Origin: Candidatus Latescibacterota bacterium
GTDB taxonomy: Bacteria > Latescibacterota > UBA2968 > UBA8231
Assembly: GCA_965203355.1 (NCBI GenBank)
Contig: OZ241889.1
Coordinates: 192,001 to 256,000 of the forward strand
Reading direction: 5' to 3'
DNA length: 64,000 nt
The notes under the pieces were generated by a model that worked only from the letters and a program-made list of their open reading frames with translations, was not told the origin of the DNA and did no database searches. Below are positions 3,550-63,447 of this stretch, piece by piece. The number at the start of each line of letters is the position of its first letter. The stretch's first letter is position 1. Position numbers and translations under genes: made by a program.

Positions 3550-5943
3550 CTAGTAAAACTGCGGGCCGAACTGGAAGTGGGTCTTCCAGCCAGCCGGCGT
3601 ACCATCGATATCCTTGCGGTCAAAACCATAGCCGAAGTCGAAGCCGATCATCCCCAACATCGGCGTCTGGACGCGAAAGCCAAAGCCTAGCGAACGCTTG
3701 AGATCCAAAGGATTAAGGTCGGGAATCGTCGCCCAAGCGTTGCCTGCGTCTGCGAAGAGGATGCCGTACACTTGCTGCTCGGCTATCGGAAAGCGGTATT
3801 CTAGGTTCAACACCATCATCGAGCGACCGCCGAGGGGAATCCCGCTGGCTTTGTCTCTCGGCCCCAAAGAGTAATCTGGATAGCCCCGGACCTGTCCGTC
3901 CCAGTAATCAATGCCGCCTGGAGTAAACAGATCATAGTACGAAATGAGGCCATCGTCCTCGTCGGAAAAACCATCTATAACCGCGACTTTGGTCTCCAAA
4001 CTCCAGACGAACTTCCACCAACTCGGTCGGTAATAGTTGAAGTTCACTTCGTGGTTGTGGAAGTCCACATCGCCAGCCACGATCGAAGTCGCGACCGATG
4101 GAGTGTAGCTAAAAACCGTCCCCTTGGTCGGAAACTCGGCCCGGTCGCGCGTATCGCGCGTATAGATCAACTCAAAGCGGCTCGTAAGCCGATCTTGATA
4201 GCGGGGATCGTTTTCAGCCCCCGTAAAGCTATCGCTGAAGTCGGAATAGCCTTGGCTATAAAGGCGATAGCCAAGCGAAAGGCTGGAGTTGGCTGGCTTC
4301 TTCAACCGCCGACCCACCCGCAGATTGATCGACTTGCGCTGGGATTTCCAGAGAATCGAATCGTACCTGCCTGATCGGTAGTCATAGTAATGGAGGTTTT
4401 GCGTATAAGCGCGCGCCGACAAACTGGTCGGGGTGTCAAAGAGCCACGGCTCGGTAAAACCGACGAGGAACTGCTCGCGCCGGGTGCCGAACTCCCAGTT
4501 AAAGTCCAGGCTCTGGCCCATGCCACGGAAGTTGGGAATTTGCAAGCCGATTTGGCCCACCATCTTGTCGCGGTCCGAATACCCGGCCCCCATAGACGCT
4601 TGCCCAGTCTGCCGCTCATCGACATGAAACACCATATCCACCAGCCGCTCGCCCTCGCCAGTACTGTATTGGGGCTGAATTTGCACATCTTTGAAGAAGT
4701 TCAACAGCATGATGCGCCGCTGACTTTCTTGAACGAGATTTTGCTGATAAATATCGCCCGGACGCAATTCGATCTCGCGCCGGATCACCTTTTCCCGCGT
4801 CTTGGTATTGCCGGCGATCTCGACCTTGCGAATCGTCCACGGCTGCCCTTCAAACACCTGGAACGACACGTCAATCGAGTCGTTGCGAATCGTCTCCTGC
4901 GGCACTACGCGCGTGTCCAAGTAGCCCTTCTCGTAATAGACAAAGCGCGCCAAATCGGCGAGCTCTGGCCCCGAGCGCCCATATACCATCCCCGCCTGTA
5001 ACTCCAGCTTCTCCACCAACTCGTCGGAGCCAAACAACTCGTTGCCTTCCCAAGCGACCTCGCCCAACCGGTATTGTAGCCCCTCGTCGATTTCCACGTC
5101 GATGAACAAGTGCCGTCGAGTCGAGTCGTAATAGACGCTGTCGCGCACTATGGCTGCCTGTTGAAAACCCAAGCTGCGATAGTACGCCAGCAATTTCTGC
5201 TTATCTTCCTCGTACGTATCGCCGTTGAACTCGCCTTTGCGCCACCAGCGCTTCTCCTCGGTCGCCATCAACGACGCCAATCGGCGCGGCTCCGGACCTT
5301 GGCCATCCCATTTTTGCGGTCGCCGAGGACTGCGTGCTGGCAACTCTCGACTGTCAATCACTGTGCCGTCGGCGCGATGTTGGATCAAGCGGATCTGCTT
5401 GATCTGTACCTTGGCTCCCTCGTTGATGTCGTATTGGAGGAATACCTCACCCTCTTCCGCACCGGCAAAAGTCTGGCCTTTGACCTCGGCGCGCAGATAG
5501 CCCTTCTCGCGATAGAGATCGAGAATTTTTTGCTCGCCCCGCACCACGTCTTTCGGCGCAATAACCTGACCGGTGACCAAGCTCAGCGCTTCCTTGAGGT
5601 CTTTCTCCTTGACGTTTTTCTGTCCCTTGAACTGCAAACCCTCTAAGGCCGGATATTCTTCAACCATGATGATCAGGTTGATTCCTTCGGGAACGGGGTC
5701 GCCCCATATCTGAATATCCTCAAAGACGTTGAGTCCTTGTAGATCGCGCACTGCCTGCTGCACATTCTCTTGCGATAACTCAACTCCAGGTTCCAAGCCC
5801 ACCGTGGTCAGGATCAGCGACTTGGCCACCTTGCGCAGTTTGCCCTGCACCTCGATCGAGACAACCTTTTGAGCCTCGACTGCGCTACCCAGCAACCCCA
5901 CAGCGACGATAGCAAAAAGTATGGTGCGGAAATTCTGCTTCAT
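3550..5943 (-). CDS. bamA: Outer membrane protein assembly factor BamA
   Basis: POTRA repeats (GNTKTREKVIRRE), VRGY motif in barrel loop 6, aromatic C-terminus FQFGPQFY. Confidence 0.95.
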   Translation of the reverse strand: MKQNFRTILFAIVAVGLLGSAVEAQKVVSIEVQGKLRKVAKSLILTTVGLEPGVELSQENVQQAVRDLQGLNVFEDIQIWGDPVPEGINLIIMVEEYPALEGLQFKGQKNVKEKDLKEALSLVTGQVIAPKDVVRGEQKILDLYREKGYLRAEVKGQTFAGAEEGEVFLQYDINEGAKVQIKQIRLIQHRADGTVIDSRELPARSPRRPQKWDGQGPEPRRLASLMATEEKRWWRKGEFNGDTYEEDKQKLLAYYRSLGFQQAAIVRDSVYYDSTRRHLFIDVEIDEGLQYRLGEVAWEGNELFGSDELVEKLELQAGMVYGRSGPELADLARFVYYEKGYLDTRVVPQETIRNDSIDVSFQVFEGQPWTIRKVEIAGNTKTREKVIRREIELRPGDIYQQNLVQESQRRIMLLNFFKDVQIQPQYSTGEGERLVDMVFHVDERQTGQASMGAGYSDRDKMVGQIGLQIPNFRGMGQSLDFNWEFGTRREQFLVGFTEPWLFDTPTSLSARAYTQNLHYYDYRSGRYDSILWKSQRKSINLRVGRRLKKPANSSLSLGYRLYSQGYSDFSDSFTGAENDPRYQDRLTSRFELIYTRDTRDRAEFPTKGTVFSYTPSVATSIVAGDVDFHNHEVNFNYYRPSWWKFVWSLETKVAVIDGFSDEDDGLISYYDLFTPGGIDYWDGQVRGYPDYSLGPRDKASGIPLGGRSMMVLNLEYRFPIAEQQVYGILFADAGNAWATIPDLNPLDLKRSLGFGFRVQTPMLGMIGFDFGYGFDRKDIDGTPAGWKTHFQFGPQFY

Positions 5944-5944
5944 G

Positions 5945-8413
5945 TCAACTCGCGGTCTCGCGTTTTTTCTTCACCCCTTGGCTCGCCCCCCCTCGACGCT
6001 CCTCGTCAAAGACTAGTTCCTCACCCCTTTTGGTGACGCGGATGCGACTGCCTTCGCCAAAGCGACCTTGGAGAATCTCCTCGGCCAACGGATCTTCGAG
6101 CATCTTCTGGATGGACCGCTCCAAATAGCGCGCACCATACGCCTGGTCAAAACCCTTGTCAGCAAGCAAGGTTTTCGCTCCAGGCGTAACTCGCACTTGG
6201 ATATCCTGCAATGCTAAACGCTCTTTGAATTCACCTAAGCGAATATCTATTATCGCGGTGATGTGATCTTTGTCGAGCGCGTGGAAAGTGATGATGTCGT
6301 CAACGCGATTGAGGAATTCGGGATTGAAGGTCTTTTTCAAGGCGTCGTTGATTTTGCCCTCCATCAGCGCGTACATCGAGTCAGAATCGGACTTTTGGAA
6401 ACCCAACACACCACCCGTGCCCACATCCCGACTGCCCACGTTAGAGGTCATAATTAGCACGGTGTTGCGAAAATCTACTTTGCGGCCCGCGCTGTCGGTA
6501 AGCCGTCCCTCGTCGAGAATCTGCAACAGGATGTTGAAAACATCGGGATGGGCTTTCTCGACCTCGTCTAGCAGAACCACTGAATACGGACGCCGACGAA
6601 CCCGCTCGGTAAGCTGCCCCCCCTCGTCAAAACCAACGTAGCCCGGAGGCGCACCAATCAGGCCCGACACTGCGAACTTCTCCATGTACTCAGACATATC
6701 GACCGAAATCAACGCATCGGCATCGTCGAAGAGGAATTCGGCTAGCCGCTTAGCCAACTCGGTCTTGCCCACGCCCGTTGGGCCGAGAAAGATGAACGAG
6801 CCGATAGGCCGCTTGGGATCCTGGAGGCCCGCCCGGCTGCGGCGAATGGCCCGCGCAACCGCAGAGACCGCCTGTTGCTGACCGACGATGTTCTTTGTGA
6901 GTTCGTCTTCCATGGCCAGCAGGCGCTCGGTCTCGGTCTTAGCCAGCCGCGAGATCGGGATGCCGGTCATACTGGCGATGACCTCGGCGATGTCGTCTGT
7001 GGTCACTTCAACCACTTCGTCGCGGACCGCTTCCTCCCACGCTTGGCGTTTGTTTTGAAGCTGTTCATTCAGATGGAGCGCCTTGTCGCGCAGCACGGCA
7101 GCGTCCTCGAAGTCTTGGCGCTCGGACGCTTCGTTTTTTTGGCGATTGATTTCCTGTATCTCAGCCTCGATGCGGCCGACCTCTTCCGGCGGACTGAGCC
7201 GCGCCAGATGCACACGCGAGCCCGTCTCGTCAATCACATCAATGGCCTTGTCGGGCAAGTAGCGGTCGCTTATATAGCGATCAGACTGGCGCACCGCATA
7301 GGCAACAACATCGTCGGCAAACTCCACGTGATGGTGGCTCTCGTAGTTGGCGCGCAGTGCCTTGACGATCTCAATGGTGTCTTCGACCGAGGGTGGATCG
7401 ACCATGACGCTCTGAAAACGCCGCTCAAGGGCCCCATCCTTTTCAATGTGTTTGCGGTACTCGTCGAGCGTGGTCGCCCCGATGCACTGCAATTCGCCGC
7501 GGGACAAAGCGGGCTTGAACATATTAGAAGCATCCAATGTGCCCTCGGCACTACCGGCCCCGACAATGGTGTGTAACTCGTCGATGAAAATGACGACTTC
7601 GGAGTTTTGCTGCAGTTCGTTCATCACCGCCTTGATGCGCTCTTCAAACTGGCCCCGATATTTGGTGCCGGCGACCACCCCGCCCATGTCGAGAGTGACC
7701 AAGCGCTTGTCTAGCAGGATCTGCGGTACGCGTTTTTCAATGATGCGTTGGGCCAGCCCTTCGACAATAGCCGTCTTGCCGACGCCTGGGTCGCCGATGA
7801 GGATGGGATTGTTCTTCTTGCGGCGGCTGAGTACCTGCGTGACGCGCTCGATCTCCTTCTGGCGACCAATCACTGGGTCTAGCTTGCCCTCGCGGGCCAA
7901 CTGAGTCAGGTCGCGACCAAAGTGGTCGAGGAAGGGCGTCTTGCTCTTCTTGCCCTTTTCCTTGCGCCCGGTGGTCTTGCCTTCGAGCACGGCCAAGGTC
8001 TCTTCTAGGGCCGTTTTGTAATCAACCCCAAAGGCCGCCAAAATCTGCGCGGCAACCCCATCCTTGTCCTTGAGTAGAGCCAAGAGCAGATGTTCGACGT
8101 CAATGAACTGCGTCTTCATCTCCTTGGCCTCGTTAGCCGCTACTTCGAGGATCTGTTTAGCGCGGGGAGTATAGGGCACCTCGCCGATGGTCATGGTGCC
8201 GCCCGAAGTCGTCACGTAGTCTTCTACTGACTGCTTGACCGTCTCCAAGCTCAACCCCAGATTCGTCAGCACAGCCACGGCCTTGCCCTTGCCGTCCTTG
8301 ATAAGGCCCAACAGCAAATGCTCGGTGCCGATGTAGTTGTGACCTAAGCGCGCCGACTCTTCGCGCGCTAGCTTCATTACCTGTTTTACGTTTTCGGTGA
8401 ACATGTTGTCCAT
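5945..8413 (-). CDS. clpC: ATP-dependent Clp protease ATP-binding subunit ClpC
   Basis: Two Clp-N repeats, two Walker A motifs ([16 protein letters not shown]), UVR middle domain, LGF ClpP-binding loop. Confidence 0.96.
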
Positions 8414-8533
8414 CTAATTGTCCTCCACAATCTGCCTATGGCTATATAATAAGGAAGCTTGATTCTCGACAATTCGGAGAGCGCAAATTGAATATCGAGT
8501 CTGGCAAACTTTGCTGGATAAAACTCAATTTTG

Positions 8534-8562
8534 AACCTACCAAATGGGCCGATTATTGTCAA
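8534..8562 (-). promoter_or_regulatory. Putative sigma70 promoter for clpC-bamA
   Basis: Minus strand TTGACA-N17-TAGGTT in the mcsB-clpC gap. Confidence 0.5.
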
Positions 8563-8567
8563 TGTTG

Positions 8568-9632
8568 TCAAGATAATCCCCTCTGTTCGGCCCAGCGCCG
8601 TCTCACTAGTTCGGCGCGGCGCACATCGCGGGCTGCCGACGAGAGCTCCGCTCTAGCTTCGGCCTGCAAATGCGAGGGCTGAGTAACGATCATTAACTGA
8701 TTGATAAAGCCGAGGGGAAAGCCGTCGATGATCCCCAAACTACACCCTAAACGAACTGCCGACAACAAATTCATAAACTCCTGCCCACTCAACACCCGTG
8801 CGTGTTGCAAAATCCCATACGCCCGCCAAACCTTGTCCTCCACTTGGGCCGATGCGTCTGCCAACAGGGTGGCCTGCGCCTCTTTTTCATGGCCCATGAT
8901 CTGTTGGGTTATCTCCGAGAGTTTCTCGACGGTCTCTCCTTCGGTTACGCCCAAAGTGGCTTGGTTGGATATCTGAAACAGGTTGCCGACCGCATTGGTA
9001 CCTTCTCCGTAGAACCCGCGCACCGCAAAAGCCATGCGGGCCAACCCGCGCATCACTCGTTCCATATCCTCGGTCAGAACTAAGGCCGGCAGGTGGATGA
9101 GCACTGATATCCGCAAACCCGTCCCGGTGTTGGTCGGGCAGGCCGTCAAGAAGCCCCAGCGCTCCGATTGCGCCCAGTCCAACTCGCTCATGAGCGCATC
9201 GTCGAGCGCATCAACTCGCTGCCACGCCGCGTGCGTTTGCAAACCCGGGAGGATGGCCTGCAAGCGGAGGTGATCCTCCTCATTAATCATCGCGCTAAGC
9301 GACTCATCCGCATTGAAAAGCACACCGCGCTGGCCCTTGCTTTTGGCCAGAGCCGGACTAATCAGGTGGCGTTCCACCAGCAACTGACGCTGGTTGGCCT
9401 GTAGGGCGTTCATATGGAAAAAGGCCGCATCGCACATAGGGCGACACTTTTGGGCGGCACTCAGGACCTGTTCGATGATCTTTTCTTGATCTTCAAGTGT
9501 GGTTTTCGGCGCAAAAGCCCACCCGGCAAGATTGCGAGCCAAGCGGGCGCGACAACTAACGACCATGCCGTCGGCATCCCCTTCTCCGCTAAGCCAGCTA
9601 GCCGCATTGTAAACGAGATCCTCAATGTTCAC
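8568..9632 (-). CDS. mcsB: Protein-arginine kinase
   Basis: SCRARLARN, NEEDHLRLQ, LTACPTNTGTG motifs; upstream of clpC. Confidence 0.95.
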   Translation of the reverse strand: MNIEDLVYNAASWLSGEGDADGMVVSCRARLARNLAGWAFAPKTTLEDQEKIIEQVLSAAQKCRPMCDAAFFHMNALQANQRQLLVERHLISPALAKSKGQRGVLFNADESLSAMINEEDHLRLQAILPGLQTHAAWQRVDALDDALMSELDWAQSERWGFLTACPTNTGTGLRISVLIHLPALVLTEDMERVMRGLARMAFAVRGFYGEGTNAVGNLFQISNQATLGVTEGETVEKLSEITQQIMGHEKEAQATLLADASAQVEDKVWRAYGILQHARVLSGQEFMNLLSAVRLGCSLGIIDGFPLGFINQLMIVTQPSHLQAEARAELSSAARDVRRAELVRRRWAEQRGLS

Positions 9633-10144
9633 GGCTGTTTTCCTTCGAGGACGCGGATGCGGTCTCTGAGCTGAGCAGCCTCTTCAAATGCCTCTTCCGC
9701 TACCGCTTGGGACAGCGCTTCGCGCAATCGCTCCAACTCGTCGGCCGCGCCAGAACTTTGCGCCGCTTCCAGCCGCCCTTTGCCCCGATGCCGATCGTCG
9801 CCGTGGATGCGTTTGAGCAGGTGCTCTAGCTGTGAGGCGAAGGCATCGTAACAATGAGGACAACCGAGGCGACCTATCTTCTTAAACTCCTCGTAGCTCA
9901 TCGCGCAAGTCGCACAGCACACCTCCCCGTCGCCTTCGGCTCCGGCCACCTTGACCAACTCTATCTTGATTTCCTTCACCAGCACGGGTACCTCTTTGGC
10001 CTGTGTAGTCGGGACGCCCAGCATCTTGATGTTTTTTTCGTTAGCGCACTGATGGCAGAGCAAGAGCGTCTGTTTTACGTCGTCGACAATATGGTTATAG
10101 GACACTGCGGCCTCGCGCTTATTGCATACTCCGCACTTTTTCAT
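9629..10144 (-). CDS. mcsA: McsB activator with CxxC motifs and UVR domain
   Basis: Four CxxC motifs, GRLGCPHCYDAF, EEAAQLRDRI UVR motif. Confidence 0.93.
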   Translation of the reverse strand: MKKCGVCNKREAAVSYNHIVDDVKQTLLLCHQCANEKNIKMLGVPTTQAKEVPVLVKEIKIELVKVAGAEGDGEVCCATCAMSYEEFKKIGRLGCPHCYDAFASQLEHLLKRIHGDDRHRGKGRLEAAQSSGAADELERLREALSQAVAEEAFEEAAQLRDRIRVLEGKQP

Positions 10145-10834: not shown

Positions 10835-12100
10835 TTACATTATATACCGAATGGCTTCTACGGGCATCAACCCCGCGGCCTTGCGCGCCGGATAAATCGA
10901 CGTCGCCAAGCAGATAACCATGCTAATCGCCGCTACCAGTGCAAAGTCCACGACATCCATATCCACGGGCAACGAACTGATAAAATACATGTCCCCGGGA
11001 ATGGAAATCAGCGCAAAGCGCTGTTGGGCTGAACAGAGCGCAAAACCGATCAAGCAGCCCAAGAAGGTGCCAATGCCACCAATGACCAAGCCCTGATAGA
11101 TGAAGATGCGGTAAATCTCGCCCACGGTGCAACCAATCGTCCGCAAGATGCCGATCTCGGGCGTCTTGACCAGCACCGACATAACTAGAATCGACATGAT
11201 GTTAAAAGCAGCGACCAGCACGATGAGGCTCAGCGCGAGGAAGATTGCCCATTTTTCCAACTCGATCCAGCGGAAGAACTCGGGAAAAAGCTGGGTCCAA
11301 TCGCGCACTTGATAGGGATAACCCAACTCCTCGGCTAGGCGGTCGCGGATCTCAGGTGCTTGGTAGATGTCTGCGACGTGGATGTGGATATCAGTAATCG
11401 CATCGCCCAATTCGAGCATGCGCTGGGCGTCCTCTAGGTGAATAAAAGCATAGTTGTCATCGTACTGGTACATGCCGCTTTCAAAGTGATCGGTCACAAA
11501 AAAGGACCACGGACGCGGTGAGAAGCCGTCCATCACGGCTGCCTCCACATCGAGATTCTGCACCGTCATCAGCAACACTTCAGAACCCGGCCCCACGTGC
11601 AAACGCCGCGCCAAGTACTCGCCGAGGACAATCCCCCGCTTATTTAGCTCGGCGAGCAAGCCGAGGCGCAGTTGACCTGCTGGATTGGCGTAGCTCAGGT
11701 GTTCGGTCAGGTCGGAAACCGCTGGAAAGGTCCCCGGATCAACGCCCCACACGGGAATGCCATCGACCCGGCCCAAATCGAGCTGCGAAGCAATAATGAC
11801 CTTGAAATCCACGACCCCGGCCGTGCCCACGACCCCGGCCGCGCCGTTCACCTGCTGCAACAGCGCATCCCAATCCGCGATGGGGCCGCCGTCAAAGCGG
11901 CGAATGTTCACGTGGGCGTTCATGCCGATCAGTCGGTTTTTGACTTCGCCGGCAAAACCATTGGTCACCGAGAGAATGATCACCAAAGCCGCAACCCCCA
12001 AGATCACCCCACCGACGGCCACATAGGCGATGACCGAGAAGAAGCCCTCGCGCTGCTTGGAACGCAGGTAGCGGCCAGCGACAAACAAAGCAATGCTCAC
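10835..12100 (-). CDS. Lipoprotein-releasing ABC transporter permease LolC/E
   Basis: RYLRSK..FFSVI N-terminus, VAAFNIMSIL, PARKAA..PVEAIRY C-terminus. Likely start is GTG at 12100, overlapping the prfB stop. Confidence 0.9.
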   Translation of the reverse strand: MSIALFVAGRYLRSKQREGFFSVIAYVAVGGVILGVAALVIILSVTNGFAGEVKNRLIGMNAHVNIRRFDGGPIADWDALLQQVNGAAGVVGTAGVVDFKVIIASQLDLGRVDGIPVWGVDPGTFPAVSDLTEHLSYANPAGQLRLGLLAELNKRGIVLGEYLARRLHVGPGSEVLLMTVQNLDVEAAVMDGFSPRPWSFFVTDHFESGMYQYDDNYAFIHLEDAQRMLELGDAITDIHIHVADIYQAPEIRDRLAEELGYPYQVRDWTQLFPEFFRWIELEKWAIFLALSLIVLVAAFNIMSILVMSVLVKTPEIGILRTIGCTVGEIYRIFIYQGLVIGGIGTFLGCLIGFALCSAQQRFALISIPGDMYFISSLPVDMDVVDFALVAAISMVICLATSIYPARKAAGLMPVEAIRYIM

Positions 12101-58802: not shown

Positions 58803-58913
58803 TAGATATTTTCCTCCGTTGCCCTAAGAAATGAGCAATGTTTTCCCCGGGGTCAAATTTCCCTACCTTATCCGGCCCGTGCTTCTACAAGTACGAAATG
58901 CAGCAGATAGTAG

Positions 58914-60002
58914 ATGAGAAAGGAATCACACATGAAGACGTCCGATCCATTTGAACAAGGTCTCGCCGCCGGTGAGGCCGCGGCTTCGGCCACCAAAGTC
59001 GCATCGACAACATCGGCCCATGGCGGGCGCATGTACGTGCGCACCCAAGGTTTTGGGTCAACGGATGCCGAGTTGCGCTTTTTGCAGCGCTGTGGCGTGC
59101 GCCACAAGGCCGCCAATTTTCCCTTCCACCCCGACCGGGGCTGGGATCTCGACGAGTTGATCCGGGAAAGAGAGCACCACGAGGCCTTTGGGCTGACACT
59201 GGATATGAGCTTGCTACCGATATATCAGCATTTTCCCAACATCATCTACTTTGGCAAAAGCCCGGAGCGCGACCGAGAAATCGACCTCGTATGCGAAATG
59301 ATCCGAACCGCTTCGCACGCCGGCATCGATTCTCTGCGCTATAACACTTGCATCCTGCCCATCGACCGCACCCAGCAAGAAGAAGGGCGCGGCGGCTACT
59401 ATCACACTGCGTTCCGCCTCGACAAGGTCCCGGCGGAAGAACAGGCCAAGCTGACTGAGGTCGGGCGCGTCACCGCAGACATGCACTGGGAACGAATTGA
59501 GTACCTGCTCGAACGCATGATTCCGGTGGCAGAAGAATTCAAGGTCCGAATGGGCAATTCTCAAGAAGACCCAGCCACACCGTCCGGCTACAAAGGCGTC
59601 GACAAAGTCCTCAATGACTTTGAGGGCATGCAGCGTTTTATCGAGATTCAGCGCAGTCCGTATCACGGCTGGAACTTCTGCGTCGGCTCCATCGCTGAAG
59701 GACTCGAAGATCCGGCCCACGAAATCTACCCCATCATAGAGTACTTTGGCCGCCGCAATACGATCTTCCTCGTTCACTATCGCAACCTCCTCGGGGGACG
59801 CTATAGCTTCCGCGAGGCACTGCCCGACGAAGGCGATATGGACTTCCACCGGGTATTAAAGGCCCTCAAGGACACCGGCTACTGCTACGGCATTGATCCC
59901 GACCACGTTCCGCGCACCGACGACGATCCAAAGGGCTATTATCAGTCCTATGCGTACTGCTTCGGCTACATCAATGCCATGATTCAGGCGATCTACGGTT
60001 AG
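58914..60002 (+). CDS. Mannonate dehydratase (UxuA)-like protein
   Basis: RDREID, FCVG, VHYRN, DEGDMD, PDHVP; HPDDP replaced by SQEDP. Start may be 58932. Confidence 0.8.
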   Translation: MRKESHMKTSDPFEQGLAAGEAAASATKVASTTSAHGGRMYVRTQGFGSTDAELRFLQRCGVRHKAANFPFHPDRGWDLDELIREREHHEAFGLTLDMSLLPIYQHFPNIIYFGKSPERDREIDLVCEMIRTASHAGIDSLRYNTCILPIDRTQQEEGRGGYYHTAFRLDKVPAEEQAKLTEVGRVTADMHWERIEYLLERMIPVAEEFKVRMGNSQEDPATPSGYKGVDKVLNDFEGMQRFIEIQRSPYHGWNFCVGSIAEGLEDPAHEIYPIIEYFGRRNTIFLVHYRNLLGGRYSFREALPDEGDMDFHRVLKALKDTGYCYGIDPDHVPRTDDDPKGYYQSYAYCFGYINAMIQAIYG

Positions 60003-60027
60003 TGTCAAGGGACAATAGTACGGGCGA

Positions 60028-60204
60028 TTAATTTTCGGGGGGCCATTCCCGGCTGCTATCTCGCTCAATCCAATCGTTGATAGTCTGGTACCTGTCAACG
60101 GCCCTTTTGTAATCCGTCCGGCTGAGCTGGACGCGGATAGCCACGTCAGCCAGCAGAATATCTGTCGATTCGGTCAGTTGCGGTGGAATAGTCCTAGTCT
60201 TCAT
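60028..60204 (-). pseudogene. Truncated CBASS-type (CD-NTase/SMODS) nucleotidyltransferase, N-terminal 58 aa
   Basis: MKTRTIPPQLTESTDILLADVAIRVQLSRTDYKRAVDRYQTINDWIERDSS...; matches, from my recall of the family, the spine helix of bacterial cGAS/DncV-like enzymes and stops just before the expected QGS active-site loop. AAGGAG RBS. Not in ORF track. Confidence 0.65.
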
Positions 60205-60256
60205 TTTAGACTCCTTGTTTGTGCCGTCGGCACAGAAGGCATTTCCCGTGGTCGCA

Positions 60257-60293
60257 GTTTATATATTGTGGGATAATCTATATCTTTGTAAAT
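60257..60293 (-). promoter_or_regulatory. Putative operator/promoter of the CD-NTase remnant
   Basis: GTTTATATA-N19-TTTGTAAAT (plus strand); minus strand reads TTTACA-N16-CACAAT. Confidence 0.5.
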
Positions 60294-60415
60294 TGCAATA
60301 ACCTCATCTACATATAGAGCAAGCGCAGAAATTTTGTTCCACGATTTCCTTTTTCTCCTATCTAGAGAATGCTGCTGTGATGGTCATCGTCAGATGACAA
60401 AAATCAGCCCTACTT

Positions 60416-60452
60416 GTTTACAATACGATAAATATATCTTATAATTGTAAAC
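60416..60452 (+). promoter_or_regulatory. sigma70 promoter with overlapping inverted-repeat operator
   Basis: TTTACA-N17-TATAAT embedded in the perfect IR GTTTACAAT-N19-ATTGTAAAC. Confidence 0.7.
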
Positions 60453-60465
60453 TTTCAATAGGAGA

Positions 60466-61614
60466 ATGCCGTCCATGCTAGGACAAAGGCTCAAGCTCGC
60501 TCGCTCTGCCGCCGGCCTGTCCCTTCGCGGCTTAGAGGAACGCATTGGCAATCGCGTAACAGCGCAGGCGATCGGCAAGTACGAGCGCGACGAATCCCTG
60601 CCAAGCTCGGGCGTCCTTATTGCGCTAGCCGACGCCCTCTCAGTCCCCGTGTCCTACTTGGTCGAAGACCAAGAAATGGCACTGGAGAGCCTTGAGTTTC
60701 GCAAGCAAAAGCTCACAAGCAAGCGAGAAGTGATGCAGGTCGAAGCCAAAGTTTTACACCTGTTGGAACGCTACCTCATGGTCGAGGAGTTTCTCGGCTT
60801 GCCGAGCCTCAACTGGGACAAACCACGCGAAGTTCCTTATCCCGTCGTCAGCGATCCCGCGGAGGCCGACCGCGCCGCTCACAGTCTTCGCCTTCACTGG
60901 GATTTAGGGCTCGACCCTATTCCCAATCTAGTCGAGTTGCTGGAAGAACGCGGCATCAAGGTGCTCTCTTCTGCTCTTGAAAATATCGACGGCCTGATGG
61001 CGCGAGTGCGCCGCGCCGACAAGGGCGTTGTGCCCGTTCTCGTCATCAACGACAGCCACTGGGGGGAACGACAGCGTCTCACAATGGCTCACGAGTTGGG
61101 GCATATGGTCTTGGCGGTTGGTCCAAAGGTAGATGACGAGACGGCTGCCTTCCGTTTCGCCGGGGCATTCCTCATGCCCGCTGAGGTGCTGTGGGCTGCA
61201 ATCGGCAAGCACCGCACGTCCACCGGATGGAGCGAACTTTTCGCCCTCAAGCAGCTATTCGGCGTAAGCGTTCAGGCCCTGACCTATCGATGCAAGGATC
61301 TCGGTATCTTCAGCCCAACCCTGTTTCGGCGGCTATTGCGCGAATTTTCCCGTTTGGGCTGGCGCAAGCCGCCCTATCGGGAGCCTTACGCTATGCCGGG
61401 CGAGATCCCCCGGCGTTTTGAGCGCCTGTGCTTCCGCGCCTTGGCCGAAGGCGCAGTATCCGAGGCCAAGGCCGCCGAGCTACTAGAAATCTCAGTCCAC
61501 AAGTTGAACCAGCGCATGGAGGAGCCGCCAGACTTGGAGTGTGATGAAGCCCATGAAAATGCAAGTCTCCGACACGTCCATCCTGATCGATCTCGAACGC
61601 GGTTCATTGCTTGA
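60466..61614 (+). CDS. XRE HTH - ImmA/IrrE (M78) metallopeptidase fusion
   Basis: RLKLAR..AGLS...AIGKYERD HTH; linker LEFRK; RQRLTMAHELGH (HExxH); A.RFAGAFLMP; FGVSVQA. Confidence 0.92.
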   Translation: MPSMLGQRLKLARSAAGLSLRGLEERIGNRVTAQAIGKYERDESLPSSGVLIALADALSVPVSYLVEDQEMALESLEFRKQKLTSKREVMQVEAKVLHLLERYLMVEEFLGLPSLNWDKPREVPYPVVSDPAEADRAAHSLRLHWDLGLDPIPNLVELLEERGIKVLSSALENIDGLMARVRRADKGVVPVLVINDSHWGERQRLTMAHELGHMVLAVGPKVDDETAAFRFAGAFLMPAEVLWAAIGKHRTSTGWSELFALKQLFGVSVQALTYRCKDLGIFSPTLFRRLLREFSRLGWRKPPYREPYAMPGEIPRRFERLCFRALAEGAVSEAKAAELLEISVHKLNQRMEEPPDLECDEAHENASLRHVHPDRSRTRFIA

Positions 61615-62053
61615 AACTTGCTTCCGCCTCCCGTTCCAGTTTGCCGTCCCGGACCTTTTGTACGAACGAGAACTAAAAAACCACGGAGGCGATAATCTGC
61701 TCAGGCTCGGCCTACGCATCGAGGAACTAGATAGCATCGGCGTCAATTGTGCCCTTCGCTACCGACGCGAGCAACCGCTGATTTCGCTACCGGACAGTTT
61801 TGCTCTTGCCCTTGCGGCAAGGAATGCTTGGGCCTTACTCACGGGTGATGGTGCGCTCCGTGGGTTAGCCAACAAAGAGTGCGTCAATTGTCACGGTGTT
61901 TTGTGGCTGCTAGATCGGATGTTTGAGCTTTCCGCTGCCAGCGCAAATGAGCTACATGCAGGTCTTGAAGCAATCAGCACTCACCCGCGCTGTAGGCTGC
62001 CCAAGGCAGAAATCCGCAAGCGGCTCGGGCACTGGCGACCGGAGTCTCACTAA
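61541..62053 (+). CDS. PIN-domain protein (putative RNase toxin)
   Basis: VSDTSILIDL, ..E.., DSFALALA, LLTGDGALR acidic PIN residues; overlaps the end of the XRE-peptidase gene. Confidence 0.82.
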   Translation: MMKPMKMQVSDTSILIDLERGSLLETCFRLPFQFAVPDLLYERELKNHGGDNLLRLGLRIEELDSIGVNCALRYRREQPLISLPDSFALALAARNAWALLTGDGALRGLANKECVNCHGVLWLLDRMFELSAASANELHAGLEAISTHPRCRLPKAEIRKRLGHWRPESH

Positions 62054-62067
62054 AGGATATATACACT

Positions 62068-63447
62068 ATGAACCGCCCCAACATCGTCTTCATCCTCAGC
62101 GACGACCAAGGCCCTTGGGCCGCCGGCTGTTACGGCAACGCGGAAATCCGCACCCCAGCCATTGACCGCATCGCTCAGACCGGCATGCGCTTTGACAATT
62201 TCTTCGTCGCCACGCCGGTCTGCTCGCCCAGCCGTGCGACCTTTTTGACCGGGCGGATTCCCTCGCAGCACGGGGTCCACGACTGGATCAGAGAGGGCAA
62301 CATCGGCGAGTCCGCAGCCGCCTATCTCGCCGGCGAGGTGGCTTACACCGACATCCTCGCTGACAATGGCTGGGTCTGCGGCCTGAGCGGCAAGTGGCAC
62401 CTCGGGCACAGCCAACTCGCGCAGCACGGCTTCTCGCATTGGTACGTGCATCAGCAGGGCGGTGGGCCGTACAACGACGCGCCCATGATCCGCGATGGCG
62501 AGCTAATCACCGAGCCGGGCTACGTGACCACGGCGATCACCAACGACGCGCTGGCGTTTATCGACCGGCACGCCGACGGCAACGCGCCCTTTTACCTAGG
62601 CGTCCATTACACGGCACCCCATAGCCCGTGGACTGGCCACCCACGGGAAATCGTCGATTCCTACGACAACTGCGCGTTCGCCTCCTGTCCGCAGGAAGCG
62701 ATCCACCCTTGGGCGGTGGGCCACGCGCTGAGCGAGAATTGCCTAGGCAACCGCGAGATGCTCAAGGGCTATTTCGCGGCGGTGACGGCCATGGACCGCG
62801 ATATGGGGCGGATCATCGACAAGCTGGAGGAAAAAGGGCTGCGCGACGACACGCTGGTGGTCTTCACCAGCGACAATGGCTTTAGCTGCGGCCACCACGG
62901 TTTCTGGGGCAAGGGCAACGGTACGTATCCGCCGAACATGTACGAGAATTCGATCAAGGTGCCCTTTGTCGTTAGCCACCCCAGCCGCATCCCGGGGGAG
63001 AGCGTCCAACACGGCATGGTCAGCGCCTACGACTTTATGCCAACCTTGCTCGACTATCTGGGACTACCACTACCAGAGGCCGCCAATTTTCCCGGACAAA
63101 GCGCGCGGCCCCTGTTGTTGGGAGAGGGCGACACGGGTCGGCAGGAGGTAATCATCTACGACGAGTACGGCGTGACGCGGATGATGCGCACCGAAGAGTG
63201 GAAATACATCGACCGCTATCCAGCGGGACCGCACGAACTCTACGACCTAGCCAACGACCCGGACGAGCGCGCCAATCTGGCGGACGACCCCAGCCAGGCC
63301 GAGCGGATCGGCGGCCTGAAGCAACGGCTGGAGGATTGGTACCAACGCTACGTAGTGCCCGAGCGCGACGGCCGCACCTTCGCGGTGACGGGCAAGGGAC
63401 AGCTCAGGCCGGTGGGCGATGGCACCCAACCTTTTGTGCAGGAGTAG
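62068..63447 (+). CDS. Arylsulfatase/choline-sulfatase-like sulfatase
   Basis: PNIVFILSDD, CSPSR formylglycine motif, GKWHLG, SDNG, ELYDL.NDP.E. Confidence 0.93.
   Translation: MNRPNIVFILSDDQGPWAAGCYGNAEIRTPAIDRIAQTGMRFDNFFVATPVCSPSRATFLTGRIPSQHGVHDWIREGNIGESAAAYLAGEVAYTDILADNGWVCGLSGKWHLGHSQLAQHGFSHWYVHQQGGGPYNDAPMIRDGELITEPGYVTTAITNDALAFIDRHADGNAPFYLGVHYTAPHSPWTGHPREIVDSYDNCAFASCPQEAIHPWAVGHALSENCLGNREMLKGYFAAVTAMDRDMGRIIDKLEEKGLRDDTLVVFTSDNGFSCGHHGFWGKGNGTYPPNMYENSIKVPFVVSHPSRIPGESVQHGMVSAYDFMPTLLDYLGLPLPEAANFPGQSARPLLLGEGDTGRQEVIIYDEYGVTRMMRTEEWKYIDRYPAGPHELYDLANDPDERANLADDPSQAERIGGLKQRLEDWYQRYVVPERDGRTFAVTGKGQLRPVGDGTQPFVQE

Follow-up and report, generated by a model that had tools for sequence, protein, structure and literature searches.

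The gene pair described here has VapBC52 of Mycobacterium tuberculosis as its closest characterised relative, and the passages on that system in its published description (PMC13273310, NAR 2026; PDB 9vzy/9vzz) present it as a stand-alone toxin-antitoxin (TA) system. According to the same passages, the large protein uses its N- and C-terminal domains to bind the PIN toxin and to occlude it, VapB52 cleaves itself with single-stranded DNA (ssDNA), the probable site being an FR motif, and VapC52 is a tRNA-cleaving PIN protein that protects against phage. A second described arrangement is that of CapH and CapP, which derepress CBASS upon DNA damage and whose divergent, head-to-head placement is experimentally regulatory (Lau et al., bioRxiv 10.1101/2022.04.27.489752). 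The relevant passages of that preprint also report a capH-capP fusion in 15 CBASS systems, one DISARM system in which such a fusion has a vapC-like gene as its neighbour, and a cysteine-switch loop in 33% of CapPs. HTH-peptidase antitoxins pair with varied toxins, PIN-like ones included (Ernits et al. 2023, PMC10440598; Makarova 2009, PMC2701414; Matelska 2017, PMC5499597), and RmrA-type ImmA proteins are confirmed antitoxins (Ernits et al. 2023, PMC10440598). Both the fused form and its pairing with a PIN gene are therefore already described and are not new (Lau et al., 10.1101/2022.04.27.489752; PMC2701414; PMC5499597; PMC13273310). Beyond these papers, a literature search gave no printed account of a fused CapH-CapP with a PIN gene beside CBASS.

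Here we analyse such a pair in a stretch of 64,000 nucleotides from a Candidatus Latescibacterota bacterium (contig OZ241889.1), hereafter called the window. Like VapBC52 as portrayed in the passages mentioned above, the locus encodes, in the same order, a large protein (HTH-like domain, FR motif, HExxH peptidase of the IrrE type and presumed C-terminal helical part) and then a PIN protein, the FR motif being at residues 78-79 as compared to 75-76 in the numbering of the VapB52 paper. However, the sequence similarity of the large proteins is distant, the window fusion has no cysteine-switch residue, and the PIN proteins share a fold class without detectable sequence similarity. Furthermore, in the window as well as in relatives, the pair stands head-to-head with CBASS or other defence operons, an arrangement that does not appear in the VapBC52 passages. 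The locus resembles CapH and CapP, as covered in the passages of the preprint, in combining an HTH repressor with an M78 peptidase, placed upstream of defence operons (CBASS of types I, II and III among them) and on the other strand, but here there is one chain instead of two, a PIN protein is a near-constant partner, and the cysteine switch is missing. RosmerTA (RmrT/RmrA) also unites an HTH with a zinc peptidase, and 14 RmrA models match the fusion; however, the adjacent PIN protein matches no PADLOC model and hence is no recognised RmrT, so that PADLOC would presumably not call the locus RosmerTA. ImmR/ImmA of ICEBs1 and DdrO/IrrE of Deinococcus are similar in that an M78/IrrE peptidase cleaves an HTH repressor upon DNA damage, but they consist of two proteins, lack a toxin partner, and have a mobile element or a repair regulon under their control. 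Compared to a short type II CBASS, the window keeps only 51 cyclase codons and about 44 bp of the E2 gene, so that the system is non-functional.

Results

The small minus-strand ORF is a truncated CBASS cyclase gene

An earlier note on this DNA had taken a 58-codon ORF (Table 1) for the N-terminal part of a CBASS CD-NTase with its own ribosome-binding site. This was borne out, as six CBASS "Cyclase" models of PADLOC matched the 58-aa peptide, the best of them being PDLC00800 (E=1.5e-11; residues 10-51 of the stub on model positions 13-54 of 420), and an AAGGAG lies 6 nt upstream of the ATG on the minus strand. When the stub was compared with longer proteins from a search of 5.8 billion proteins, E-values of 0.01 or lower were obtained for 80 of 87 candidates. 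These longer relatives are mostly 410-421 aa in length and carry PF18144 (SMODS) and PF21654. By BLASTP, residues 1-51 were 88% identical to the best full-length SMODS cyclases (413-415 aa), and no identity extended beyond residue 51. The full-length relative P0003 has GS and D-x-D stretches, which we take to be the active-site motifs of the cyclase, at about residues 64-83. The gene is thus cut off just before the active-site loop, in agreement with what the note had proposed. Pfam and NCBIfam gave nothing significant for the 58-aa peptide (in NCBIfam, only a chance match at 0.099). A full-length CD-NTase with its active site is missing from the window, whereas it is present in the related loci L001, L007, L010, L012 and L023. 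On this sequence evidence, the small ORF is a CD-NTase pseudogene, and the locus represents no live CBASS.

Table 1. Features of the locus, in window coordinates
Feature	Position	Strand	Evidence or remark
Relic of about 44 bp, interior of CBASS E2 gene	60005..60048	minus	blastn-short, alignment A5
58-codon ORF, CD-NTase pseudogene stub	60028..60204	minus	codons 1-51 cyclase, last 7 codons and stop within E2 relic
CD-NTase 5' remnant, residues 1-51	60052..60204	minus	tblastn, BLASTP, blastn (L010 homology resumes at window 60051)
AT-rich divergent promoter region, 261 bp	60205..60465		36.8% G+C; conserved blocks in alignment A4
Promoter-like site facing stub, TTTACA-16-CACAAT, 9 of 12	60265..60292	minus	within a conserved block of CBASS-bearing relatives
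Putative operator, perfect 9-bp inverted repeat GTTTACAAT / ATTGTAAAC, 19 bp apart	60416..60452		pattern search
Sigma-70-like promoter of fusion-PIN operon, TTTACA-17-TATAAT, 11 of 12	60417..60445	plus	bracketed by putative operator
HTH-M78/IrrE peptidase fusion, 382-aa ORF	60466..61614	plus	Pfam, PADLOC, profile
Fusion FR motif, F78-R79	60697-60702	plus	family alignment
Fusion HExxH, H209-E210-x-x-H213	61090-61104	plus	family alignment
Fusion E225	61138-61140	plus	family alignment
PIN-fold nuclease, 170-aa ORF from GTG	61541..62053	plus	overlaps fusion gene end
PIN acidic residues D 61571, E 61670, D 61793, D 61847	within 61541..62053	plus	alignment

At least two deletions removed most of the CBASS operon

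The 2-kb unit had been placed between two metabolic genes, and these proved to be a UxuA-like gene and a sulfatase gene. The same flanks are found in L010, with a whole cyclase-E2-patatin operon between them, which is a short type II CBASS. By blastn, the window lacks positions 6892-9552 of L010, that is 2661 bp. This is in good agreement with the proposal that the CBASS arm was deleted while regulator and toxin were retained. The intact cassette also occurs in L001, L007, L012 and L023. In the relatives, the cyclase gene (PDLC00800) is followed by an E2 gene (PDLC00877) and by the gene for a patatin phospholipase effector; in L001, PADLOC recognised the cyclase at 7e-149, the E2 protein at 4e-48 and the phospholipase at 2.8e-113, and Pfam recognised Patatin at 5e-27. 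While the relatives thus have an E2-only, Cap2-like gene and an effector downstream of the cyclase, the window has about 44 bp of E2 and no patatin gene, and no further cyclase, E2 or patatin copy was found in it. The 49 bp at 60002-60050 had been considered as unrelated filler, a view that was overturned by blastn-short, in which the relic of about 44 bp matched inside the E2 genes of L001, L007, L010 and L012, and by alignment A5. The presence of an E2 relic at the junction indicates that at least two deletions took place.

Two samples of a single study, which may be the source study, yielded contigs identical across the junction, and in run X4 no contig spans 59717-60209. Given the identical contigs from two samples and the E2 relic, the junction is probably not an assembly artefact. 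The contigs of the X11 RNA library derive from a relative that is 90-95% alike.

We also looked in the window for the second copy of the sulfatase 5' end that lies left of the island in L001, L007 and L008, and did not find it. Repeats of 26-61 bp from the sulfatase start had been considered as att-like sites and were dropped for L003-L006, where a second ORF of 468-472 aa occupies that spot; this ORF is a putative tandem sulfatase paralogue. No Rfam family was detected in 59900-62200.

An intact HTH-peptidase fusion overlaps a PIN gene

The gene facing the stub had been described as an intact XRE-ImmA/IrrE fusion. Indeed, its product harbors both HTH_3 (PF01381, 9.5e-11) and Peptidase_M78 (PF06114, 1.5e-17), and the HExxH motif and E225 are kept. 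The likely start is the ATG at 60475, located 10 nt 3' of a GGAG. In PADLOC, the best RmrA model matched at 4.6e-51, capP at 9e-13 and capH at 5.8e-5; the NCBIfam entry "spr1629 family repressor/antitoxin" remained far below its cut-off. Among 58 fusion sequences, residues E210, H213 and E225 do not vary at all, and conservation is 90% or more at H209, F78 and R79, the last two forming the FR motif of the LEFRK linker to which attention had been drawn earlier. There is no cysteine between H213 and E225 and, consequently, no cysteine switch of the VapB52/CapP type. A profile of the fusion searched against the PDB matched the VapB52 chain 9vzy_A (E=1.4e-7) over the peptidase part only, with the HExxH motifs aligned, as well as the HTH of ImmR (7t8i, 7e-7) and IrrE (3dte, 1.5e-4), while the single sequence matched HTH chains alone.

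The coupling of the fusion to a PIN gene was likewise confirmed: the two genes overlap, the product adopts a PIN fold in prediction, and four acidic residues are kept. The likely start of the PIN gene is the ATG at either 61544 or 61553. The 37 PIN sequences compared all have D8, D82 and D100, and the conservation of E41 is 90% or more. The window protein matched PF01850 at E=0.015, under the Pfam cut-off, and this family was matched at E<=0.1 by 36 of the 37 members (best 3.6e-8). The predicted structure has a pLDDT of 93.3, and its top Foldseek matches were PIN/VapC chains (probability 1.00, TM 0.6-0.69). Neither the PIN sequence nor the PIN profile matched any PDB chain significantly, and the VapBC52 entries 9vzy and 9vzz were absent among the matches of the profile at E<=1. 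No PADLOC model matched the window PIN protein at E<=1 or the L001 PIN protein at E<=0.01.

A palindrome marks the promoter of the fusion

The gap between the divergent genes, noted earlier as AT-rich and about 260 bp long, is indeed poor in G+C when compared to the whole window (59.4%; Table 1). In 48 of 79 loci, the fusion is preceded by the palindrome TTTACA-N22-24-TGTAAA, at a fixed position of about -55/-26 relative to the fusion start codon, and this pattern was absent from the remaining 1,519,202 bp searched. The putative operator is kept in CBASS-less relatives (alignment A4). With its fixed distance from the start codon, it offers a simple handle on the regulatory claim. The complete palindrome is present only at the promoter of the fusion itself; the promoter-like site on the cyclase side carries a single TTTACAA half-site, and an extra half-site on the CBASS side occurs in two separate lineages. 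Since the CBASS side has one half-site, the case for control of CBASS in the lineage of the window rests on synteny.

Related fusions lie head-to-head with CBASS and other defence operons

Our census comprised 80 sampled fusion loci, in which loci of one lineage are not independent; L062-L080 were screened for defence genes at E<=1e-30 only, and L004-L006 and L011 were assigned by synteny alone. CBASS genes or relics were present in 36 of the 80 loci and, with the exception of L061, all were head-to-head with the fusion (35 of 36), the distance from the CBASS 5' end to the fusion being about 80-300 bp. The cyclases belong to at least six model types (00800, 00808, 00822, 00793, 00814 and 00780). 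In the window, where it faces the cyclase stub, as in the relatives, the fusion is on the opposite strand to, and upstream of, the defence operon. Another 14 loci harbored other PADLOC defence families, of which SIR2-HerA (L034) and ZacAB (L067) are likewise divergent from the fusion. Fusion-PIN homologues are thus strongly enriched in head-to-head position with CBASS and other defence operons, an enrichment on which the earlier note had let its reading depend, and no part of that reading was contradicted. In 30 of the 80 loci, no defence neighbour was seen among the three nearest upstream ORFs.

Of the 80 loci, 45 have an intact PIN gene and 19 a broken one; the remaining 16 have none, two of these loci being cut by contig ends. 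The pairing is asymmetric: all 63 PIN loci with at least 1100 bp of upstream sequence have the fusion directly upstream, and the fusion is often found without an intact PIN gene. When PIN loci were taken as the starting point, a CBASS in head-to-head orientation was seen in 17 of 44. On a tree of 79 fusions, the type of partner changes at least 30 times.

Discussion

We propose that the locus is a decayed five-gene defence cassette, in which a dead CBASS arm faces an intact fusion-PIN arm acting as a self-regulating switch and toxin, and we give this reading a probability of roughly 0.7. The lost arm was a CBASS operon of the short type II, encoding a CD-NTase, an E2-only protein and a patatin-like phospholipase, and was destroyed by two or more deletions that left its promoter, its ribosome-binding site, the 51 cyclase codons and the piece of E2. 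The surviving arm, an HTH-IrrE/M78 fusion with an overlapping PIN gene, is a distant VapBC52 relative, akin to RosmerTA-type antitoxins and to CapH-CapP fusions. We suppose that the fusion binds the palindrome around its own promoter, leading to repression of the operon, and that it also keeps the PIN nuclease inactive. Upon phage attack or DNA damage, ssDNA would activate the peptidase, which may then cleave itself at the FR motif that separates HTH and peptidase, so that repression would be lifted and the PIN RNase freed. In CBASS-bearing ancestors and relatives, the same event could also derepress the head-to-head CBASS promoter. We infer both this control of the CBASS promoter and the self-cleavage from synteny, the operator motif and a distant homologue. 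The pair may have outlived the CBASS arm because, as we propose, losing the fusion or its promoter would come at a cost with the PIN gene present.

A module that regulates only itself, be it a TA or an abortive-infection system, could also have come to lie beside CBASS by clustering in islands and never have controlled the cyclase promoter. Such autonomy would fit the complete palindrome that brackets the fusion's own promoter, the 30 of 80 loci without a recognised defence neighbour, the 30 or more switches of partner type on the tree of 79 fusions, and the description of VapBC52 as a stand-alone TA system in the passages on it (PMC13273310). We nevertheless consider it unlikely, as it does not account for the head-to-head orientation at about 80-300 bp in 35 of 36 CBASS loci with six cyclase model types, an orientation shared by SIR2-HerA (L034) and ZacAB (L067) and reported as experimentally regulatory in the CapH/CapP passages (10.1101/2022.04.27.489752), or for the extra half-site that two separate lineages have on the CBASS side.

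A further view, namely that the fusion is a pure transcription switch (CapH and CapP in one chain) and the PIN protein an extra effector checked by transcription alone, appears less probable still. The capP and capH models do match the fusion, fusions are classed as regulators in the passages of Lau et al. (10.1101/2022.04.27.489752), and the fusion stays intact in the 35 of 80 loci where the PIN gene is broken or absent. However, in all 63 PIN loci that could be judged the fusion is the gene directly upstream, and the two reading frames overlap or abut, as is the case in toxin-antitoxin pairs. Binding and occlusion of the PIN toxin by the domains of the large protein, as described in the VapBC52 passages (PMC13273310), and the confirmed antitoxin role of RmrA-type ImmA proteins (PMC10440598) also argue against it. 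As for the possibility that the 58-codon ORF arose by chance or through misassembly and that CBASS was never present, we regard it as already refuted: the lack of a significant Pfam or NCBIfam match for the peptide and of an X4 contig across 59717-60209 stands against the 88% identity over 51 residues to cyclases of 413-415 aa, synteny with intact loci that holds at the nucleotide level on either side, the E2 relic at the junction and identical junction contigs in two samples.

Going beyond the decayed-cassette reading, we tentatively suggest, with somewhat less than even confidence, that the fusion is a one-chain ssDNA sensor with two outputs, which by its self-cleavage would derepress a head-to-head immune operon and free the PIN RNase, and that the addictive PIN arm shields the shared promoter. 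The immune operons concerned would be CBASS types I-III, SIR2-HerA, Azaca and others. Three or more separate lineages retain a cyclase 5' stub (that of the window, L052 with L146-L148, and L068), and the persistence of these stubs could be due to this shielding. If this were true, stand-alone VapBC52-type modules could be orphans of decayed defence cassettes.

For annotation, these results call for the label of CD-NTase pseudogene on the small ORF and for that of a VapBC52-like or RosmerTA-like module on the pair. The census moreover joins two literatures that the papers cited above keep apart, one treating HTH-peptidase/PIN pairs as toxin-antitoxin systems and the other treating CapH/CapP as regulators of immune operons: one gene family in one position covers both classes, with CBASS operons or relics in about two fifths of the sampled loci. 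The series of states among the relatives represents a clear natural example of a defence arm that decays while a presumably addictive neighbour persists. In close relatives, we observed the full cassette, an internally deleted cyclase, the stub, the operator alone, and the fusion without a PIN gene.

Deletion of a type II CBASS operon left a cyclase stub

The 58-aa peptide encoded upstream of the fusion (an HTH-M78/IrrE peptidase) had no Pfam match but was matched by six PADLOC CBASS cyclase models, the best being PDLC00800 (E=1.5e-11; residues 10-51 on model positions 13-54 of 420). A database search limited to longer proteins gave 80 matches among 87 candidates, almost all of 410-421 aa and carrying SMODS (PF18144) and PF21654. 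The top full-length cyclases share 88% identity with stub residues 1-51, and the similarity stops at residue 51. In a full-length relative (P0003), the GS and D-x-D stretches, which we take to be the catalytic motifs of the cyclase, come some 13-30 residues past this end. The stub is therefore what the earlier note had described, the N terminus of a CD-NTase cut just before its active-site loop. Five of the 80 matches were themselves fragments of 107-151 aa (P0010, P0014, P0033, P0034, and P0079). In the first four, a clean N-terminal match runs into unrelated residues, which suggests further independent truncations. Cyclases of this family seem to be often broken. Some of these fragments are carried by contigs that reach 159 kb in length.

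The operon that was lost could be identified from related loci. Between the same two flanking genes, L010 carries, in this order, patatin, E2, CD-NTase, fusion, and PIN genes, a set of five that it shares with L001, L007, L012, and L023. In L001, PADLOC recognized the cyclase (7e-149), the E2 (4e-48), and the phospholipase effector (2.8e-113), and Pfam recognized Patatin (5e-27); the lost operon is of this kind, a short type II CBASS. Blastn aligned window positions 58918-60001 with L010 5810-6891 and 60051-63418 with L010 9553-12938, so that 2661 bp are missing from the window. The 49 bp at the junction are not filler, as about 44 of them match an internal part of the E2 gene in five relatives. 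Two or more deletions are needed to account for this relic, through which the final seven codons of the stub ORF are read. No further copy of the cyclase, E2, or patatin gene was found within the window.

The stub and fusion ORFs diverge from a 261-bp gap with a G+C content of 36.8%; that of the 2-kb unit is 54.9% versus 59.4% for the window. The closest related loci, all labelled Candidatus Latescibacterota except L001 (Gemmatimonadetes), are 83-94% identical in nucleotide sequence across the flanks. Contigs from two samples of one study, possibly the one that yielded the window, are identical to it over 58900-62200, spanning the deletion junction.

Features of the window and of related loci (L numbers)
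Locus	Feature	Position	Strand	Remark
Window	UxuA-like gene	58914-60002	+	left flank
Window	E2 relic	60005-60048		junction
Window	stub ORF, 58 codons	60028-60204	-	
Window	cyclase-side promoter-like site	60292..60265	-	9/12
Window	9-bp inverted repeat	60416-60424 / 60444-60452		perfect
Window	fusion ORF, 382 codons	60466-61614	+	
Window	PIN ORF, 170 codons	61541-62053	+	overlaps 3' end of fusion ORF
Window	sulfatase gene	62068-63447	+	right flank
L010	patatin	6934-8043	-	
L010	E2	8007-8465	-	
L010	CD-NTase	8462-9706	-	
L010	fusion	from 10001	+	
L010	PIN		+	next to fusion
L001	copy of sulfatase start	4933-4993		
L007	copy of sulfatase start	3558-3618		
L008	copy of sulfatase start	5449-5488		
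L009	patatin C-terminal relic	9319-9529		
L009	TnpB-like frame	9516-9725	+	
L052	cyclase stub	9678-9941	-	head-to-head
L068	cyclase stub	9605-9847	-	head-to-head
L146-L148	cyclase stub	~4731-4835	-	head-to-head

Close relatives form a series of CBASS decay

The 13 closest loci and the window could be arranged by what remains of the operon. The full cassette is present in L001, L007, L010, L012, and L023; L008 has an internally deleted cyclase with E2 and patatin relics; the window has the cyclase stub; and L009 has a relic of the patatin C terminus together with a TnpB-like zinc-ribbon fragment. CBASS is gone from L003, L004, L005, L006, and L011, which retain operator, fusion, and PIN, and L002 retains the fusion with PIN exactly absent. 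The palindrome (or a near copy) and the fusion promoter are kept in all 14.

The L009 fragment lies between the patatin relic and the CBASS-side promoter block and presumably encodes the zinc-ribbon C terminus of a TnpB/IS605 OrfB protein; an IS element may have taken part in CBASS loss there. In L002, which has a 1032-aa type IIG restriction-modification gene upstream, the fusion end abuts the sulfatase start at 11131/11132 (window 61596 and 62067). A 1033-aa gene of this type is included in the defence island of L007 and L008. The sulfatase 5' end (window 62068-62128) is copied over 40-61 bp at the far left of the island in L001, L007, and L008, so that direct repeats of the sulfatase start flank the island. 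Such an arrangement resembles the outcome of repeated site-specific insertion at this position; the window holds no second copy of the sulfatase 5' end.

Both retained genes are intact, and in 63 loci PIN lies behind the fusion

Both genes retained in the window are intact, with conserved motifs. The fusion has HTH_3 (9.5e-11) and Peptidase_M78 (1.5e-17) domains and is matched by 14 PADLOC RmrA models (best 4.6e-51), by capP (9e-13), and by capH (5.8e-5). Across 58 aligned relatives, E210, H213, and E225 do not vary, and H209, F78, and R79 are at least 90% conserved. The profile of this alignment matched PDB chain 9vzy_A (E=1.4e-7, HExxH motifs aligned) as well as ImmR HTH and IrrE structures. 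There is no cysteine between HExxH and E225, and hence no cysteine switch. Judging from related sequences and from the placement of a GGAG, the likely true start is the ATG at 60475. The ORF runs eight codons past that of L010 (61588-61614, inside the PIN overlap), with CGA where the L010 stop would fall by alignment.

The PIN protein of the window falls under the Pfam cut-off (PF01850, E=0.015), and PF01850 matches 36 of 37 family members at E<=0.1 (best 3.6e-8). D8, D82, and D100 never vary in the family, and E41 is kept in at least 90% of its members. At the sequence level, no PDB chain was matched significantly. The AlphaFold model (pLDDT 93.3) has PIN/VapC chains as its best Foldseek matches (E from 2e-4, TM 0.6-0.69, probability 1.00), which establishes the PIN fold of this 170-aa protein.

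With the fusion protein as query, 403 relatives were retrieved from genome contigs. Among the best 80, PIN is intact in 45 (including L010, where the sole "stop" is the natural end), broken or partial in 19, and absent in 16, two of them cut by contig ends; the fusion is free of stops in all 80, a set biased by having been chosen for fusion similarity. A counterpart designed against this bias, a search of metagenome contigs with the PIN alignment, gave 288 relatives. In 63 of the best 80, 1100 bp or more of sequence precede PIN, and every one of these loci has the fusion immediately before PIN in the same orientation. Contig ends truncate the remaining 17, 11 with a partial fusion reaching the contig end and 6 with at most 436 bp before PIN. 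Fusions without PIN thus exist, whereas PIN without fusion was not seen in these 63 loci. A toxin and its antitoxin would be expected to show just such one-sided dependence.

The fusion often stands head-to-head with CBASS and other defence operons

PADLOC was run on up to three upstream ORFs of 68 loci (E<=1e-5 or E<=1e-30); the remaining 12 were 11 close relatives and the cut L072. L001 was scanned separately, the other close relatives were judged by tblastn and synteny, and a tblastn panel added relics. CBASS genes or relics adjoin the fusion in 36 of the best 80 of 403 loci, with the operon 5' end facing the fusion in 35 (exception, L061).

CBASS genes and relics adjoining the fusion
Type	Loci
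cyclase 00800 with E2 and patatin, or 2TM-SAVED effector	L001, L007, L008, L010, L012, L014, L017, L018, L020, L021, L023, L028, L032, L038, L048, L061
patatin relic alone	L009
cyclase 00808 or 00822 with HORMA and/or TRIP13	L031, L043, L058, L071, L074, L076, L077, L078, L079
cyclase 00793, type II	L039, L042, L044, L065
cyclase 00814 with 2TM effector	L046, L049, L051
cyclase 00780 with E2 and HNH-SAVED	L057
N-terminal cyclase stub	L052 (residues 1-35, E=1e-5), L068 (residues 15-63, E=9e-13)

Within the three nearest upstream ORFs, other PADLOC families occur in 14 of these 80 loci, and no defence neighbour was recognized in 30. SIR2+HerA (L034) and ZacA+ZacB (L067) are both divergent from the fusion; further neighbours include E1/E2-like, BilD-like, viperin, HmaA, PDC-M38, ATPase, and restriction-modification genes. 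The tabulation thus bears out the defence neighbourhood that the earlier note had expected for homologues of the fusion. From the PIN side, 44 of the best 80 of 288 loci have 1500 bp or more of sequence before the fusion, and 22 of these 44 had a CBASS-panel match; by inspection, 17 are head-to-head, 4 are weak (24-26%) and about 2 kb off, and 1 is downstream. Three of the 17 are the same 35-codon stub as in L052. The stubs of L052, L068, and L146-L148 are of other CD-NTase types (PADLOC models 00814 and 00808), in unrelated lineages.

Broken CBASS operons adjoin the fusion in L008, L017, L028, L032, L043, L044, and L051. In all of these except L008, the cyclase, patatin, or TRIP13 gene is in 2-3 pieces (frameshift or internal deletion) and the fusion is open.

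A FastTree tree was built from 79 fusions, without L012 and L072, and with L009, L052, and L068 labelled "none". On it, the partner label requires at least 30 changes, the minimum possible being 6. Shuffled labels gave a mean of 42.2 changes, and none of 200 shuffles was as low as 30; CBASS presence or absence requires 20 changes. Partners are inherited within lineages, yet have been exchanged or lost many times.

A putative operator and a working model

The inverted repeat brackets the fusion promoter, a sigma-70-like TTTACA-17-TATAAT (11/12). In 48 of 79 loci, the 200 bp preceding the fusion contain the pattern TTTACA-N15-27-TGTAAA, with spacers of 22-24; the pattern is absent from the remaining 1,519,202 bp of these loci. 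The half-sites of this putative operator keep almost constant positions, around -55 and -26 relative to the fusion start, which supports autoregulation by the HTH domain. The -35 element of the cyclase-side promoter-like site contains one half-site, and this promoter block is conserved in CBASS-bearing relatives, the window, and L009. An extra CBASS-side half-site in two lineages, on a background of 0.23 half-sites/kb and with same-lineage loci not independent, is weak evidence.

None of the components is new in kind, and earlier work has already recorded the fused regulator both beside CBASS and beside a vapC-like gene. Lau et al. (bioRxiv 10.1101/2022.04.27.489752) report 15 CBASS systems with an apparent capH-capP fusion, and one DISARM system in which such a fusion adjoins a vapC-like gene. 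Makarova et al. 2009 (PMC2701414) describe operons that combine COG2856-Xre fusions with PIN or RelE toxins, and Matelska et al. 2017 (PMC5499597) list PIN-like families downstream of HTH-DUF955 fusions. Ernits et al. 2023 (PMC10440598) treat the ImmA node as the RosmerTA antitoxin and link it with PIN-like domains. The VapBC52 paper (PMC13273310), with which 9vzy is one of two deposited PDB entries, describes VapB52 as binding two VapC52 via its N- and C-terminal domains and self-cleaving with ssDNA, probably at an FR motif, and VapC52 as cleaving tRNAs and protecting M. smegmatis against phage. Our literature search found no paper joining the CapH-CapP fusion and HTH-peptidase/PIN threads for CBASS. 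This knowledge is extended, within the same category, by our census, the conserved operator, and the decay series.

In our working model, the fusion would repress its own operon, neutralize PIN, and cleave itself at F78-R79 upon sensing ssDNA; the cyclase promoter would formerly have been under its control. The PIN arm would be the reason why the pair and the promoter-proximal DNA outlast CBASS decay, an idea that N-terminal cyclase stubs in three separate lineages fit without proving it. The overall reading of the earlier note, a locus that lost its CBASS arm and kept regulator and toxin, is largely right and the finding real.

In the PIN-less loci L015, L022, L024, L025, and L054, other same-strand ORFs follow the fusion, among them ORFs of 971, 478, and 518 aa in L025, L024, and L054, respectively. 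By analogy with RosmerTA-type systems, these ORFs may be alternative toxins or effectors.
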